A DNA stretch of 64,000 nt from Candidatus Bathyarchaeota archaeon (GTDB lineage: Archaea > Thermoproteota > Bathyarchaeia > 40CM-2-53-6). Of the stretch, positions 27,789 through 57,800 are shown one piece after another; the first letter of the stretch is position 1; every line of letters starts with the position of its first letter. The notes below the pieces were generated by a model. It saw only the letters and a list, made by a program, of their open reading frames with translations, did not search any database and was not told where the DNA came from. The position numbers and the translations under genes were made by a program. The DNA lies in contig CAWHWX010000001.1 of NCBI GenBank assembly GCA_963833125.1, positions 128,001 through 192,000 of the forward strand, given 5' to 3'.

Positions 27789-27930
27789 TGGCGGGTCCGG
27801 AGGGATTTGAACCCTGTCGGCCACTTTCCTTTAGTTGTGGCTCTCGACCTTCGGGTATCCCCCATCCGGTTAAGAGCTTCGGCCAAAGCTGAGCCTAGTC
27901 CGCCGCTCTACCTGGCTGAGCTACGGACCC
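27789..27930 (-). tRNA. trnK: tRNA-Lys(CTT) with three introns (30/31, 37/38, 51/52) and encoded CCA
   Basis: Removing 27878-27899, 27857-27870 and 27814-27842 yields GGGTCCG TA GCTC AGCCAGGTA GAGC G GCGGG CT CTT AA CCCGA AGGTC GAGGG TTCAAAT CCCTC CGGACCC GCCA (77 nt). Acceptor, D and T stems pair fully, and each junction has a BHB-like motif. Confidence 0.92.
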
Positions 27931-28006
27931 GCTGAAGGCCTGTGAAAGTTTGCTCGCACATTAAAGTATTCTCGGCGACAAGGGACATTGAGGATGCGTC
28001 TGAGTC

Positions 28007-28810
28007 ATGGGGGAATTAATCTTCATAGGCTTAGGCTTGTACGACGAACAAGGCCTATCACTTCGCGGACAAACCGAAGCAAGAACCTGTGATCGAGTCT
28101 TCGCAGAATTCTATACCAGCGTGATGCCCGGACTGAAAATAGAAAAGCTCAGCGAAACGGTGGGTAAACCCGTCCAGATCCTATCACGCATTGATATTGA
28201 GGAGGACGCAGAAAAACAGATTCTGTCGAAAGCTAAGACGGAAAAAATTGCGATTCTGGTGGCGGGAGATCCGATGGTGGCAACAACTCACGTTGACCTA
28301 CGCCTACGAGCTCATAGGGCAGGTATTCGAACTCGCATCATCCACGCAGCCACCGTAACGTCCGGAGCAGCGGGAGCGACCGGTCTACAGTCCTACAAGT
28401 TCGGCAGAACCATCACGGTACCTCTCGCAACAGGTGACAACCTACCTGAGAGCATTTACGCGGCGCTCAGAGTCAACCTTGAAGCCGGCCTACATTCACT
28501 AGTTTTACTCGAAGTTAACGCTGAGACTAAACAACACGTAACCATCCCCAAAGCACTCCAAGGATTACTCTCCCTCGCGGCCCGAACACAAAACCCAGTC
28601 ATAAAACCGGAAATGCTGGTTGTGGGTATAGCGAGACTGGAAGCACCAGACATGATTGTTCATGCCGCAAGCATCTCGGAACTTATGCAGGTTGATTTCG
28701 GTAAACCCCCACACTGCCTCATCTTTCCCAGCACCCTGCATTTTGTTGAGGCAGAGGCCCTGCAAGTTTTCTGTGGCGCACGGAAAGGCTTGGTGACTTC
28801 GGAACATTGA
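28007..28810 (+). CDS. dph5: Diphthine synthase
   Basis: 'FIGLGL', 'AEFYTS', 'GDPMVATTH', 'GLQSYKFGRT.T', 'DFG.PPH.LI.P..LHF.E'. Confidence 0.95.
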   Translation: MGELIFIGLGLYDEQGLSLRGQTEARTCDRVFAEFYTSVMPGLKIEKLSETVGKPVQILSRIDIEEDAEKQILSKAKTEKIAILVAGDPMVATTHVDLRLRAHRAGIRTRIIHAATVTSGAAGATGLQSYKFGRTITVPLATGDNLPESIYAALRVNLEAGLHSLVLLEVNAETKQHVTIPKALQGLLSLAARTQNPVIKPEMLVVGIARLEAPDMIVHAASISELMQVDFGKPPHCLIFPSTLHFVEAEALQVFCGARKGLVTSEH

Positions 28811-32996: not shown

Positions 32997-35711
32997 GTGA
33001 ACGACAATTTCGATTTTGCGAAAGGGACCATTGACAGTCCTCAGGGTAGGGCGGGTTATTTCAGCCTCAAGAAATTGAAAGAGATAGGCTGCGAGCTGGA
33101 AAAACTGCCTTACTCGATTAGAGTTCTTCTTGAGAACACGCTTCGTTCATCCGGGAAGGTTGCAGGCGCCAAGGAAGCCGTGTATAGGCTCTCTGAATGG
33201 CCGAAGAGCATTGGCGAAGAATTGCCGTTCATGCCTTACCGTGTATTGCTGCAAGACTACACTGGCGTTCCACTTATTGTCGACCTGGCGGCGATGCGAA
33301 GCGCCTTCGCACGAAAAGGCTTGGATCCGCGGACGGTCAATTCACGGGTTCCAGTCGATCTGATCATAGATCATTCGGTCCAGGTTGATAGTTGGAGCGT
33401 TCCGAACGCCCTGTCCATGAATTTGGAGAGGGAGTACGAGAGAAATTCTGAACGGTATTCGTTGTTGAAGTGGGCTCAGTCGTCGTTTAGTGGCATGAGA
33501 ATCTTCCCTCCGGGCAAAGGAATCTGCCATCAAGTCAATTTAGAGTACTTGGCGAAAGTAGTTTCAATTCACGAATCTGGCGGCACCCTAACTGCCTTCC
33601 CCGACACACTAGTTGGAACTGATTCCCACACGACGATGGTTAACGGAGTAGGCGTGTTGGGCTGGGGTGTTGGCGGAATAGAGGCGGAGGCGGTGATGTT
33701 GGGGGAGCCTTACTACATGCCTATCCCGAAAGTTATCGGGGTCAAAATCACGGGTCAACTTCCCGAGGGCGCGACTCCAACCGACTTAGTGCTAACGGTT
33801 ACCGAGGCTCTGCGAAAGGAGGATCCTGTGGGCGCGTTCGTTGAGTATTTCGGTGATGCGTACCGGGAGTTGAGTGTGCCCGATCGGGCGACGTTGGGAA
33901 ACATGTCGCCAGAGTACGGGGCAACGGTCGGCTTCTCCCCCGTGGATGAACAAACAATCTCCTACCTCACTGGGACAGGAAGAGAGAGCAGTCACACGAA
34001 TTTCGTAAGGGAATACTGCAAGTCTCAAGGCCTCTTTCTAGAGAAGAATAGCCCGCATCCGAACTACTCGAAGACCATCACAATCGACCTAGACAAAATT
34101 GAACCGTCGATAGCAGGCCCACGAAACCCTGACGAAAGGGTACCGCTCAAGTCGGCTCCAACCCTCATCGCGAACGTTCTTGAACAATACAAGAGATCCG
34201 GCCCTGCTCCGCCTAGCGCCCGCAAAATTGCTGACGACGGGTACCAGCTTAGTTTGCTCCATAATACGCCGAAGGGAAATGGAACACCCGACCCTGGTCA
34301 ATTGAGTGACGGCTCAATTGTTATCGCCGCAATAACGAGTTGCACCAACACTTCCAACCCCACAGTCATGGTTGGAGCTGGGTTGATTGCAAGAAAAGCA
34401 GTTGAACTGGGACTTACGCCCAAGGGTTACGTAAAGAGAAGTCTTGCGCCTGGCTCGAAAGTTGTGACGGATTACCTAGCGAAATCCGGGTTGCTGCAAG
34501 ACCTCGATTCTCTCGGGTTCGACATAGTTGGTTACGGCTGCACAACTTGCATTGGGAATAGTGGTCCACTTGCTCCTGAAATTGAGAAGCAGATTCGGGA
34601 CCGGAACTTGTACGCGGTTGCGGTATTGAGTGGGAACAGAAACTTTGACGGACGCATCCATCCCCTCGCCAAGGCATCTTTCCTAATGTCACCCATGCTA
34701 GTCGTAGCCTATGCTCTGGTTGGCCGAATTGAATTTGATTTCTACAAGGAACCCATAGGCACCAGCAGGGATGGAAGGAAGGTATTCCTCAAAGATATTT
34801 GGCCTACAATGAAAGAGATCCGCGAAACAATCTCCAACTCACTTTCACCAGAATTCTACAAGTCAACTTACGGCGCAGCCCTCGAAGGCGATGAAAAATG
34901 GAAAGCACTTCAATCTCCAGCAGGCGACGCGTACGCTTGGGATGAGAAGTCAACCTACATTCGCGAACCGCCATGGTTTGCGAACGAAAAGGAAGCAGTG
35001 GCCGATATTTCTAAGGCACGCGTGCTTGCGATCTTCGAAGATAAGGTCACAACCGACCATATATCCCCCGCAGGGACAATACCCATCGATAGTCCTGCAG
35101 GCCTATACCTTCAACAGAATGACGTACCCAAAACCATGTTCAGTACGTACGGAAGTCGGAGAGGCAACCACGAAGTTATGGTACGGGGTGGGTTTGCGAA
35201 TATTCGATTGAAGAACATACTCGCTAGGGGGAAGGAGGGGGGTTGGACCGTGCACCAGCCTTCGGGGGAATTGATGACGATTTACGACGCAGCTACACGT
35301 TACATCACCGAACAGACGCCCCTCCTAATTCTTGCTGGGAAACAGTATGGGGCGGGCAGTTCAAGGGATTGGGCTGCGAAGGCTGTGAAACTGTTAGGTG
35401 TGAGGGCGGTTATTGCGGAGAGTTTTGAAAGAATCCACCGCAGCAACCTCGTCGCAATGGGCGTACTACCACTCGAATTCAAACAAGGCGAAAGCTGGAA
35501 AACCCTAGGCCTTCAGGGAGACGAAATCTATGAGGTGAAGGGCATTAGTGGAATAAACGGACCAAAAACATCGTTGACTGTGAACGCCAAGGGAAAAACC
35601 AAGCAAACAAGCTTCGAAGTTACCGCCAGGGTGGATAATCAGGTCGAGGTTGAATATTATCGGGATGGCGGAGTGCTTCCGTACGTTTTCGCGAAACTCG
35701 CACCCTCCTAA
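32997..35711 (+). CDS. acnA: Aconitate hydratase A
   Basis: 'LQDYTGVP', 'DHSVQVD', 'GTDSHT', 'ITSCTNTSNP', 'GCTTCIGNSG', 'TTDHISPAG', 'GSSRDWAAK'. Confidence 0.97.
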   Translation: MNDNFDFAKGTIDSPQGRAGYFSLKKLKEIGCELEKLPYSIRVLLENTLRSSGKVAGAKEAVYRLSEWPKSIGEELPFMPYRVLLQDYTGVPLIVDLAAMRSAFARKGLDPRTVNSRVPVDLIIDHSVQVDSWSVPNALSMNLEREYERNSERYSLLKWAQSSFSGMRIFPPGKGICHQVNLEYLAKVVSIHESGGTLTAFPDTLVGTDSHTTMVNGVGVLGWGVGGIEAEAVMLGEPYYMPIPKVIGVKITGQLPEGATPTDLVLTVTEALRKEDPVGAFVEYFGDAYRELSVPDRATLGNMSPEYGATVGFSPVDEQTISYLTGTGRESSHTNFVREYCKSQGLFLEKNSPHPNYSKTITIDLDKIEPSIAGPRNPDERVPLKSAPTLIANVLEQYKRSGPAPPSARKIADDGYQLSLLHNTPKGNGTPDPGQLSDGSIVIAAITSCTNTSNPTVMVGAGLIARKAVELGLTPKGYVKRSLAPGSKVVTDYLAKSGLLQDLDSLGFDIVGYGCTTCIGNSGPLAPEIEKQIRDRNLYAVAVLSGNRNFDGRIHPLAKASFLMSPMLVVAYALVGRIEFDFYKEPIGTSRDGRKVFLKDIWPTMKEIRETISNSLSPEFYKSTYGAALEGDEKWKALQSPAGDAYAWDEKSTYIREPPWFANEKEAVADISKARVLAIFEDKVTTDHISPAGTIPIDSPAGLYLQQNDVPKTMFSTYGSRRGNHEVMVRGGFANIRLKNILARGKEGGWTVHQPSGELMTIYDAATRYITEQTPLLILAGKQYGAGSSRDWAAKAVKLLGVRAVIAESFERIHRSNLVAMGVLPLEFKQGESWKTLGLQGDEIYEVKGISGINGPKTSLTVNAKGKTKQTSFEVTARVDNQVEVEYYRDGGVLPYVFAKLAPS

Positions 35712-54871: not shown

Positions 54872-57800
54872 TTGGTCAGTGTGAACGAGCTTAGACGAGA
54901 AGAGTACCTGAAGGTAGCTGTCATTCTAGGGATAACGATACTCCTTGTCTACGGTGACGTTGCTTTCATGGGATACACTCTGTCTCAGGCAGTGGACAAT
55001 GAAGGTGTGCTCGTTGGCACTCAGTATGGCTACACTGGACGACGTCCAAATTTCATCACAGTTCTGGACCCACTTTCGACTGGCGCTCAAATAGAACCAG
55101 CTCTTCAGTTAATTGTTCAGAGAATTTACTCCGGGCACCTTCCCCTGTGGAATCCGTATCAGGGAACTGGAGTTCCTCTTGCTGGCGACCCCACTTGGAG
55201 CACATATTTCCCAACAAACCTACTTTACGTCATACCAAACAATTACTGGGATTACGTGGAGCTTCTCAAACTTTGGGTCGCAGCCATGTTCTCCTACTTA
55301 CTCTTGAAACGATTCGGTCTAAGCAAAGCCGTGTGCATGGGCGGAGCGTTTGCGTACTCTCTTTCAGGAGCCTTGGTCGTGAACCCATTTGTCCCCTGGA
55401 CTGACATTGCCATTATGACCCCAGCCGTATTGCTTGTAGTTAAGAGATGTATCGATAACACATGTCGTCAGTCAATAGCTCTGGCGAGTGTCGTCGTCTC
55501 AATTACGATATTGGGTGCGCACATAGAAACGCTGGTTATCGAGTTTCTCCTTGTCGGCTGGTTCGCAATCTTCGAGATAATTACAAGGAAAGCTGGGCGA
55601 ATAAAGAGCCTCTTCAGGTTGCTTTCTAGCGTAGTCTTGGGTTTCGGAGTCGCTGCATTCTTCCTATTTCCTGTCTTCGAATACTTGCTGGGTTCCGCTT
55701 TTGCACACGGCGCAGGCGTCGGGTTGCAATCTCTCTCAACAAGAGGATTACCCTATACAGATCTGAATCCAGCGTTTTACTGGATAACCCTCTTTGTGCC
55801 ATACTTTTACGGATTCTTCCAGACTTATCCTTACGCTGGCCTTAGGCACGTTTTCTTTTGGGACCTTTTCCCGGGGTACGTTGGCACTACGATTTTCTTT
55901 CTTTCACTCTTGCCTTTGTTCTTGGGAAGTTTTCGTGACCCCAGATTGAAGTACTACTGGTTCTTTTTGACCAGCGAAATATTGATCCTCATGAAAAACT
56001 TTGGCGTTCCACCAATTAATTGGATTGGATATCTCCCTGTCATGACCTTCGTAAACTGGCGCTATTCAGGTTCGGTCTTGGCACTGTCTTTCGCTGGAGC
56101 TGCCGCATTTGGGCTGGAAAGCGGCGAAGAATTTCAAAGTGGAGAGCATTAGGGGCCGTTTTCGCCGTTGCTATCATGATTATAGCAGGATTATGGGCGA
56201 GTCTATCAACCTCGGTAGTGTCACTGTCCTACTACCTTCCAGCATCGCTTGGGTATCTGATTTTCAGCCTAGGAGCCCTTGGGCTATGTGGTATCGTAGC
56301 ATCGAAAGGGGGGAGCATGGCGCCTAAGATCCTTGTAGTATTCATTGTCTTAGAACTAACAGCTTACATCCCTCGATCTCTCGCCCCAGAGTATGAAGCA
56401 GGCAGAATAGCAGTACTCTCGGTCGCAGGCCTCATAACTACTGCCATAGCTGTTTGGCCCAGAGAAAACTCGGAGCGAATTGGTTGGCCGTTTTCTTTCC
56501 GGTTTCCAAATCGGAAGCATATGTTAGCCATGCTCATCATTGCTGCAATGATCTTACAGTTTGCCATTGCGAGCGCGTCACCCGTAGGAATACCAAAGCG
56601 TTATGACGCTTTCACTGCTGCGCCATATGTCAGGTTCTTACAGGCCAACACGGGATTTCAAAGGGTTTTCTCTACCGACGGTCTATTTCTTGCTCCGGTC
56701 GCAGGCATATTTTCAGTGCAGGATCTGGGTGAATTCTCCTCATTCATGCCTTCCTCATTTGAGGCGTTCACCATTATGAACCTCGACCCAGGCCTTGTAT
56801 CAACCGTATTCCTTGGTAACGGATTTTATCGTCACGGCGACGTAGATATTGGAAACGAAATCCATAACAACCTAGCATTTTACAGCCTACTCGGAGTAAA
56901 ATACTTCGTCACAAGCGGCACTGATCCCGGCTTGGTATACGAGATACTCCTTCAACCAGAAACCGAAGGAAATTTCAGATGGATCCCTATTGGCAACAAC
57001 TCCATCTCGACAGAGTTTCTGACCGACAGGTCATTTGATGGTCTGGTCTTACGCGTCGGGACCTATGGTCGAATAAACCAAGGCGATCTCTTACTCACGC
57101 TCGATTCTATCTCAACCAACGTAACAGTGCATAGAGTTGCTCGCCTACCAGCAGAATCGATATCAAACGATGGTTGGAGAAATGAGTTTACGTTTCCTAA
57201 TGTTGAGGTGGCTAGCCCGACTGAATTCCGAGTCAATGTGACACAATCTGATACCGAGCTGGGAAATGCCCTTGCCGTAATGTGGTATCCCCAAGCAAAG
57301 CAGGATCCGGACTTGTCGATTGAGAATCGTTCACTCAATCTCGCGATGGGACTAATCCAACGAGACGAAACACTACCCATCGTGTACCGTGATCAGAATG
57401 CAACCATCTACCAGAATCTCAGAATGTTCCCGCGAACATTTTTGGTCAATCGGATAATTACGGCAAATAGTCCGGAGGACGCACTGAACAAAACAAGGGA
57501 AATCGGTTGGGAAACTCGCGACTCACTGGTGATCGAGGGGGCTCCAGAAGAACTCGGCCTATTGAAGACCGCACCGAACGCTTCCGGTGGCGCTGAGATT
57601 GAACTATATTCCCCTGAGGAAGTAGACCTGCGAGTTACGACCGCTAATCCTTCCTTTCTGGTACTCACCGACACTTTCTATCCAGGCTGGAACGCATATG
57701 TTGATGATAAACCCGTGAATACTTACCGGGCATATGGGTTGGTGAGGGCCGTTTTCGTCAATGCGGGCAGCCACCAAGTTTCGTTCAAATATGAATCCGA

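Follow-up and report, generated by a model that had tools for sequence, protein, structure and literature searches.

A tRNA-Lys(CUU) gene with three predicted bulge-helix-bulge introns and a possible order of splicing in a Bathyarchaeia archaeon

The minus strand of a 64-kb stretch of DNA from a Bathyarchaeia archaeon (hereafter the window: 64,000 nucleotides (nt) of contig CAWHWX010000001.1, assembly GCA_963833125.1) carries a 142-nt interrupted gene for tRNA-Lys(CUU), the 5' end of which is position 27930. Very probably this gene is functional, and its three introns of the bulge-helix-bulge (BHB) type would be removed by the tRNA splicing endonuclease EndA. Its exons do not differ among 21 genomes of the genus, while the introns diverge in sequence and length and keep the pairing of their splicing motifs. 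Two of the motifs draw on one set of four exon nucleotides and compete for it, which makes a fixed order of intron removal fairly probable. Transcription, cleavage, ligation and the order of splicing are here inferred from sequence.

Multi-intron tRNA genes with introns at non-canonical BHB sites, including the T-arm, are described for Crenarchaeota in passages of two open-access papers, where they are linked to an EndA of the (alpha-beta)2 type (PMC4090602, PMC3978253). In a review from 2015 the number is given as 'up to three introns' (PMC4390854), and two preprints describe Asgard genomes with introns in 92-95% of tRNA genes and with up to five intervening sequences in a single gene. Ordered removal of nested introns in archaeal pre-tRNAs is credited to Sugahara 2007 and Tocchini-Valentini 2009 in a passage of one of these papers (PMC3978253). 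Sequential removal of tRNA introns, with the anticodon-arm motif processed last, appears in a study on Cyanidioschyzon merolae (PMC3728597).

An interrupted tRNA gene overlooked by standard searches

In the window, Rfam family RF00005 matched positions 27930-27792 with 30.6 bits (gathering score 29, E 0.022), and the alignment contains long insertions within the anticodon arm and ahead of the T-arm. No other Rfam family was matched in the 64 kb. ARAGORN called no tRNA in the window, nor in the uncut 142-mer. After removal in silico of precursor nt 32-53 (22 nt), 61-74 (14 nt) and 89-117 (29 nt), the remaining exons (nt 1-31, 54-60, 75-88 and 118-142) form a 77-mer which ARAGORN identifies as tRNA-Lys(ctt), with stems of 7/4/5/5 base pairs (bp) and one G.A in the anticodon stem. 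This product comprises a 74-nt tRNA cloverleaf and an encoded CCA. The intron sites are 30/31, 37/38 and 51/52 in tRNA numbering; the D-loop has nine nt, of which one is numbered 17a, and all site names used here follow this numbering.

A previous sequence-only reading of this DNA had described a 142-nt gene at 27789-27930 that collapses to a 77-nt tRNA-Lys(CTT) and includes a T-stem intron. The locus is as described there and the strand is to be corrected, the gene being found on the minus strand. The collapse to the 77-mer and the T-stem intron, a 29-nt insert at 51/52 within an HBh' motif, are both borne out, and the three BHB strings quoted in that reading all occur exactly as written. It had also suggested that standard callers may miss or mis-call the gene. 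Indeed ARAGORN is silent, the search of the whole assembly with Rfam, in which only 18 matches pass the cut-off, does not list the gene, and the Rfam search restricted to the window passes by 1.6 bits.

All four exons are collinear inside the 142 nt. A split or permuted tRNA gene was considered as well and is ruled out by this collinearity and by the orphan copies of the 3' exon, which have no 5' partner (see below).

Geometry of the splicing motifs

In each of the three introns, a helix forms between four exon nt, 3-6 nt ahead of the 5' site, and four intron nt, 3-6 nt ahead of the 3' site, which leaves a 3-nt bulge on each strand. The central helix of intron 1 is formed by C25-C28 and GCCG (CGGC/GCCG) with the bulges GG^A and AA^G, and its outer helix consists of 4 bp between A21-G24 and C32-U35. 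Intron 2 pairs C32-U35 with GGGG (CTCT/GGGG), has the bulges TA^A and AT^A, and shows an inner helix of 0-2 bp in this gene and in 20/20 homologs. In intron 3, the central helix joins G46-G49 to CGAC (GTCG/CGAC), the bulges are AG^A and AG^G, the inner helix comprises the 5 bp GCCAC/GTGGC, and an outer helix is absent. The motifs are thus of the types hBHBh' for intron 1, hBH for intron 2 (only with intron 1 out) and HBh' for intron 3. EndA cleaves after the second bulge nucleotide. The same product would result from shifted sites, namely 51/52 as 49/50 or 50/51 and 37/38 as 38/39, so that BHB geometry alone fixes the positions of the splice sites.

For a systematic search for introns, a BHB-guided solver was applied, which reads a precursor in 5' to 3' direction, fits a cloverleaf and jumps only where the central-helix rule and one flanking helix are present. 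Given the precursor alone, its best solution consisted of exactly the three introns (score 25.5). The runner-up (score 21.0) retained some of insert 3 in the form of a 16-nt variable arm and removed an 18-nt intron. Solutions were obtained for none of 200 precursors with shuffled interior and for none of 200 in which the introns were shuffled in place. The minimum free energy (MFE) structure of the whole precursor has a z-score of -2.16, a modelled value which is not striking; it holds the helices of intron 3 and shows intron 1 in a shifted register, not in the BHB register.

Conservation of exons and of intron structure

The 142-nt sequence was compared by BLAST with 40 relatives, including 22 other genomes of the genus (G000 denotes the genome of the host of the window and other G numbers denote relatives). 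A homolog was detected in 20 of the 22 congeners with 76-92% identity, and the two congeners without a match are represented by assemblies that are 67% and 88% complete. The exons are identical in all 21 genomes, i.e. G000 and the 20 congeners (20 distinct sequences and that of G006), with no exon substitution among the 20 aligned homologs. The introns differ both in sequence and in length, which ranges within the genus from 16 to 28 nt for intron 1, from 14 to 17 nt for intron 2 and from 19 to 31 nt for intron 3.

Base pairs were counted over the BHB helices in an alignment of 20 sequences (A1). Standard pairs account for 96.9% of 415 cells, compared with 18-44% when the 3' partner was slid by 1-3 columns. 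Five pairs (24 cells) changed on both sides, and none of 500 shuffles equalled the observed count of both-side cells or the observed covariation score. The inner helix of intron 3 contains three pairs changed on both sides, e.g. from G-C to A-U and from A-U to C-G. All four BHB central helices, including that of the D-loop intron found in congeners (see below), are 100% paired, with intron-side changes that are wobble-compatible only. In detail, the central helix of intron 1 is paired in 20/20 sequences and its outer helix is invariant, and the central helix of intron 2 is likewise paired in 20/20, with U35 opposite G in five and opposite A in 15. Between families, position 26 and its intron partner covary as G-C, G.U and A-U. 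Judged from these alignments, the gene is under selection, which acts on the exons and on the structure of the introns, not on intron sequence.

Upstream of the gene, a CTTTAAT box lies at the same distance in 18 of the 20 homologs, the other two having CTTATTT or CTTTATT, and the flanks diverge. This box is likely a TATA-like promoter element. The features of the locus are compiled in Table 1.

Table 1. Positions of the tRNA-Lys(CUU) gene, its exons and predicted introns, and the putative promoter box within the window
Feature	Positions	Strand	Evidence
Whole tRNA-Lys(CUU) gene	27789..27930	-	Rfam 30.6 bits; ARAGORN on spliced product; solver; homologs in 20/22 congeners
Exon 1, tRNA positions 1-30: 5' strand of the acceptor, D-arm, G26, 5' strand of the anticodon stem to G30	27900..27930	-	ARAGORN, solver; invariant 20/20
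Intron 1, 22 nt, 30/31, hBHBh'	27878..27899	-	Motif geometry; central helix paired 20/20, outer helix invariant
Exon 2, positions 31-37: G31, anticodon loop to A37, anticodon CTT	27871..27877	-	ARAGORN, solver, alignment
Intron 2, 14 nt, canonical 37/38, relaxed hBH	27857..27870	-	Motif geometry; central helix paired 20/20
Exon 3, positions 38-51: 3' strand of the anticodon stem, variable loop, initial three T-stem nt	27843..27856	-	ARAGORN, solver, alignment
Intron 3, 29 nt, 51/52 in T-stem, HBh'	27814..27842	-	Motif geometry; central helix 100% paired; inner helix in MFE fold
Exon 4, positions 52-76: remaining T-arm, 3' strand of the acceptor, discriminator G, CCA encoded at 27789-27791	27789..27813	-	ARAGORN, alignment
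CTTTAAT box, 30-36 nt before tRNA position 1	27960..27966	-	Conserved in homologs; putative promoter function

Splicing enzymes and a proposed processing pathway

The genome contains two open reading frames (ORFs) with the EndA catalytic domain (PF01974), encoding proteins of 185 and 190 amino acids (aa). The 185-aa protein matches chain 3p1z_B of Aeropyrum pernix over its full length (E 7.8e-40), and other crenarchaeal EndA chains match as well. It keeps the motifs FGSDFA.Y...GIDHAPFIV and VRK of the alignment with 3p1z_B, including the Tyr, His and Lys which we take to be the catalytic residues. The 190-aa paralog is divergent (best E 8.5e-14), and beta-subunit models match it below threshold only. 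RtcB is encoded in the genome, too (574 bits). Such a set of two paralogs is the pattern expected of a broad-specificity (alpha-beta)2 enzyme, a type which, like epsilon2, accepts non-canonical sites. The sequence-only reading had proposed typing of the EndA subunits as a check on its idea of a relaxed-specificity endonuclease; this is borne out as far as the presence of two paralogs and the crenarchaeal type of the catalytic one are concerned, the second being divergent with its sub-threshold beta-subunit matches.

Based on these features, the following pathway is proposed. The gene would be transcribed on the minus strand from the TATA-like box about 30-36 nt upstream, and the 142-nt primary product would present each of its three introns to EndA as two 3-nt bulges around a 4-bp helix, this helix being composed of exon nt and the 3' part of the intron. 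EndA, presumably made up of the catalytic alpha subunit and the second, divergent paralog, would cut both strands behind the second nucleotide of the bulge, and ligation by RtcB would yield the 74-nt tRNA, for which the CCA is already present in the gene. The precursor itself would be unable to adopt the cloverleaf, the motif of intron 1 engaging A21-G24, the 3' strand of the D-stem, with C32-U35 of the anticodon loop and that of intron 3 using G46-G49 in place of the T-stem. Introns 1 (full hBHBh') and 3 (HBh', independent) would probably be cut in the primary transcript. Removal of intron 1 would free C32-U35 and join the anticodon stem, and only then would the motif of intron 2 be a proper one.

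Competition between introns 1 and 2

The 3' strand of the outer helix of intron 1 and the exon strand of the central helix of intron 2 are one and the same, C32-U35, and thus overlap completely. The sequence-only reading had based its splicing order on a CTC shared by the two introns, and the overlap is real and larger than it had claimed. Furthermore, C28 is needed by both the central helix of intron 1 and the anticodon stem. With intron 1 present, the outer helix of intron 2 has 1 contiguous bp, and once intron 1 is removed it has 4 bp, which applies to 20/20 homologs. Lacking a useful inner helix, intron 2 depends on this outer helix, and a motif of type hBH without its 'h' is on paper a poor substrate. 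The shared C32-U35 together with the gain from 1 to 4 bp argues for removal of intron 1 before intron 2, and we regard this order as effectively obligatory with fair, not high, probability. The earlier wording that intron 1 'must be removed first' is too strong, as a relaxed-specificity enzyme might cut a form with a three-way junction. Intron 3 and the D-loop intron of congeners (17/17a) use other nucleotides and should be independent of this order.

In the ensemble of predicted precursor structures, the GAG/CUC helix has a median probability of 0.99 and exceeds 0.5 in 17/20 sequences, and the helix of intron 3 has a median of 0.95. Base-pair probabilities were also tried as a discriminator of the order and rejected, as the BHB central helices of introns 1 and 2 remain at about 0 in every state, including that after in-silico removal of the other intron.

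Assessment of alternative explanations

Several observations weigh against a functional gene processed in the proposed way. The Rfam score barely exceeds its threshold. The mature anticodon stem contains a G27.A43 mismatch, which is the same in 20/20 homologs. How EndA is composed of subunits is inferred from its two paralogs. The fit of the solver in G000 alone is partly circular, the BHB rule having been used for finding the introns, and since the solver uses this rule, independent support comes from the cross-species data. For the central helices of introns 1 and 2, the nearest-neighbour model assigns the BHB register a median probability of 0.00 in every state, and it gives the mature anticodon stem a probability above 0.5 in 0/20 sequences. 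As the model fails on this stem and on the BHB registers, thermodynamics lends no real support to the order. Finally, the assembly has a completeness of 87.8% and a contamination of 7%. It is therefore possible that a second tRNA-Lys(CUU) gene lies in the missing part, and the gene is not proven to be single-copy. Within the assembly, searches with the exact 5' exon, the exact 3' exon and the spliced anticodon arm matched this locus only, no other CTT anticodon was found among 40 candidate tRNA loci, and no Lys is among the 35 calls of ARAGORN on the genome. The intact intronless tRNA-Lys(CTT), which the sequence-only reading had named as the sign of a pseudogene, was thus not found in searches of the assembly.

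The weak Rfam score, the silence of ARAGORN, the mismatch and the incomplete assembly would all suit a decaying pseudogene that has acquired insertions, with AAG codons read by tRNA-Lys(UUU) or by an unassembled tRNA-Lys(CUU). We consider this very improbable, however, as the exons are identical across 21 genomes in spite of an overall identity of 76-92% and diverging introns, compensatory changes occur in the intron helices, the box ahead of the gene is conserved, and the ends of the inserts always retain the 4-bp helix and the 3-nt bulges. Moreover, the G27.A43 mismatch is kept in the tRNA-Lys(CUU) of other families, and the tRNA-Lys(UUU) gene of the same genome is interrupted likewise. Hardly to be expected, too, is a gene in which only some of the inserts are introns and insert 3, or part of it, persists as a long extra arm. 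The runner-up of the solver with its 16-nt variable arm (21.0 vs 25.5) has this form, but the region varies from 19 to 31 nt among congeners next to invariant exons, and the T-stem pairs G49-A50-G51/C63-U64-C65 are completed only by removal of the full 29 nt. With its short variable loop, tRNA-Lys belongs to class I.

A rival that concerns the order alone keeps the same gene and dispenses with a fixed sequence of events. A relaxed EndA would also cut intron 2 in the primary transcript, with intron 1 standing as a side hairpin in a three-way junction. The competing structures are two conformers of one RNA and able to interconvert, the central helix and both bulges of intron 2 use no nucleotide of intron 1, the folding models did not discriminate between the two cases, and (alpha-beta)2 enzymes are reported, in passages of two papers, to accept hBH, HBh' and BHL motifs (PMC4090602, PMC3978253). 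On the other hand, intron 2 would lack any flanking helix, outer or inner, of at least 2 contiguous bp as long as intron 1 is kept, and C32-U35 are engaged in the outer helix of intron 1 with a predicted probability of 0.99 in the precursor. In Cyanidioschyzon the anticodon-arm motif is always the last one, according to the study on it (PMC3728597). Splicing without fixed order therefore appears possible but somewhat doubtful to us, and the removal of intron 1 before intron 2 is retained as the preferred reading.

Interrupted tRNA genes in the genome and in the lineage

Across G000, 40 candidate tRNA loci were collected, of which 14 were solved under strict rules, 19 only under long-arm or relaxed rules (these solutions were not used) and seven remained unsolved. 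ARAGORN in intron mode returned its 35 calls with many implausible introns of up to 1870 nt, and these were not used in the census either. The tRNA-Lys(UUU) gene, of 161 nt (G000:C14:28869-29029, plus strand, locus L130), is predicted to contain introns at three sites, 30/31, 37/38 and 43/44. It has two sites in common with tRNA-Lys(CUU), the intron sequences are unrelated, and its 27-43 pair is a normal U-A. Under strict rules, three introns each were found in tRNA-Tyr(GUA) and tRNA-Gly(GCC), two in tRNA-Met(CAU) and one in five further loci, and three genes were intronless. The 183-nt tRNA-Pro(GGG) gene (G000:C16:326836-327018, plus strand, locus L129:37-219) is interrupted by four predicted BHB introns, which follow mature nt 15, 23, 33 and 48. 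Full-length copies are present in 17 other congeners, and 14 of the 18 loci have identical exons with compensatory changes in the intron helices; the four-intron form is found in G000 and in 13 congeners. Multiple interruption is predicted for most tRNA genes of G000, and a tRNA-Lys(CUU) gene with three introns is typical of its genome and not an oddity.

Within the genus and the order, the number of introns in tRNA-Lys(CUU) varies. Eight congeners (loci L016-L022, e.g. L016:1327-1479 on the minus strand, and L111 from G006) possess a fourth intron, which is 22-25 nt long and separates C17 from A17a in the D-loop. The BHB motif of this intron pairs U12-G15 with CUGA and has the inner helix GGCAU/AUGCC, with 100% pairing in seven aligned sequences. 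In other families of the order, the 30/31 intron occurs alone in G031, G039, G037 and G028, together with a 9/10 intron in G025, together with introns at 17/17a and 43/44 in G033 (L117), and together with introns at 37/38 and near 43/44 in G038 and G030, where the sites were assigned by eye as the solver mis-solved these genes. A pattern search for the 30/31 intron (exon, 10-40 nt, GCTCTTA) was positive in 40 of 121 genomes sampled across the class and in 22/24 of the order, and the reversed control was positive in seven genomes. As it is so widespread in the class, the 30/31 intron is probably the oldest of the tRNA-Lys(CUU) introns, an age estimate drawn from distribution only and not from a tree. 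The introns at 37/38, 51/52 and 17/17a look like later, lineage-specific gains.

Taken together, the data may reflect a lineage-wide proliferation of tRNA introns in Bathyarchaeia, with up to four BHB introns per gene, in the course of which a later 37/38 intron was fitted into an anticodon loop already used by the 30/31 motif. This would have resulted in an obligatory two-step splicing, and the orphan last exons described below could be traces of recombination or integration tied to the gain of introns. We regard this scenario as slightly better than an even guess.

Apart from that, the three intronless tRNA genes are all located on contig C28, at 57281-57357, at 110482-110559 and, for tRNA-Pro(CGG) as called by ARAGORN, at 34937-35013. 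Two of them look bacterial in their acceptor stems and are possibly part of the 7% contamination. The same contig also carries a 146-nt candidate that was solved under relaxed rules only. Near-identical copies of interrupted tRNA genes occur on different contigs, for Val-CAC at C2:14915, C3:16580 and C16:103491 and for Gly-GCC on C6, at C18:125837 and on C29, which suggests strain mixtures or duplicated segments in this metagenome-assembled genome (MAG).

Comparison with described systems

This kind of gene is known, and what is new is the host lineage, the combination of sites and the fourth intron of the relatives. Like the multi-intron tRNA genes of Crenarchaeota, the gene has several BHB or relaxed introns, is found in a host with a putative two-subunit EndA and is missed by ordinary finders. 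In contrast to these, it derives from a Bathyarchaeia MAG of a mesophilic habitat (soil or peat) and not from a hyperthermophile or from Thermoproteales, its sites are 30/31, 37/38 and 51/52, and its congeners reach four introns, beyond the three of the review. The tRNA genes of Asgard archaea belong to a different phylum but are similar in that most are interrupted, many of them in the D-arm, and under-called, with BHB-compatible sites and repeated lineage-specific gains.

Precedents for an order of removal are the nested introns of archaeal pre-tRNAs, where, as proposed here, one motif is complete only once another intron is gone and the structure of the precursor sets the order. The introns considered here, known from sequence, are instead placed 7 nt apart without being nested, and they compete for C32-U35 and the anticodon stem. 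The proposed order is a reasonable idea. The study on Cyanidioschyzon describes ectopic BHB introns in the D-arm and T-arm and an anticodon-arm motif spliced last, which corresponds to the order predicted here; this organism is, however, a eukaryote, and its motifs fold independently with an order given by stability, whereas the two motifs of the present gene are mutually exclusive.

Among the papers listed by searches of open-access text (20 of 74 in one case), no description of tRNA introns in Bathyarchaeota or Bathyarchaeia turned up, supplementary tables being outside the search; one of these papers contains the word Bathyarchaeota once, a further paper has an unrelated mention, and the word Bathyarchae is absent from a 2026 Asgard preprint. 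The phrase 'four introns' in combination with tRNA terms was found, among the 12 open-access papers listed, only in that on Cyanidioschyzon, where the passage refers to four T-loop introns across different genes (PMC3728597).

The heavy interruption of tRNA genes known from Thermoproteales and lately from Asgard archaea is hereby extended to a class that is widespread in sediment, soil and peat. As ARAGORN and filtered Rfam searches miss or mis-call many of these genes, estimates of completeness and of codon reading which rest on tRNA counts will be wrong for Bathyarchaeia MAGs. Besides, a single gene in which the exons are invariant and the introns number from one to four between families provides a comparative series for intron gain, and two motifs competing for four exon nucleotides represent a simple, testable case for an order enforced by structure.

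Orphan 3' ends and genomic surroundings

Isolated 3' ends of tRNA genes were observed in intergenic regions of G000. Three are Lys-like (C14:50734-50757, plus strand; C18:2213-2236, minus strand; C1:88624-88648, plus strand) and two are Pro-like (C27:14820-14847 and C1:217354-217383). The Lys-like copies begin exactly at the start of the last exon and the Pro-like ones within a few nt of it, and no 5' tRNA half was found within 500 nt or elsewhere. Several congeners have an orphan copy that shares the orientation of the Lys gene and lies 7-30 kb away from it; in L124 a minus-strand copy lies about 8.9 kb away. It is a possibility that these 3' ends are remnants of old attachment sites. An integrated element as their source was examined and rejected in two congeners, where the 10 ORFs scanned between gene and copy are ABC transporters and metabolic enzymes, with no integrase among them; no integrase was found either in 10 ORFs beside the three orphan copies of G000. 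In addition, T-arm-like fragments (GGTTCAAATCC or variants) occur at most 40 nt downstream of the CCA in G021, G011, G018 and G005, and none is present at this position in the gene of the window.

A gene for a diphthine-synthase-like methylase (28007-28810, plus strand) diverges from the tRNA gene across a 76-nt spacer (27931-28006), and this divergent pair is kept in five Bathyarchaeia MAG loci (L023-L027). Elsewhere in the window, the segment 36001-40000 has a GC skew of +0.27 and a GC content of 0.54, the adjacent bins showing skews of -0.1 to +0.04 and GC contents of about 0.50-0.52.

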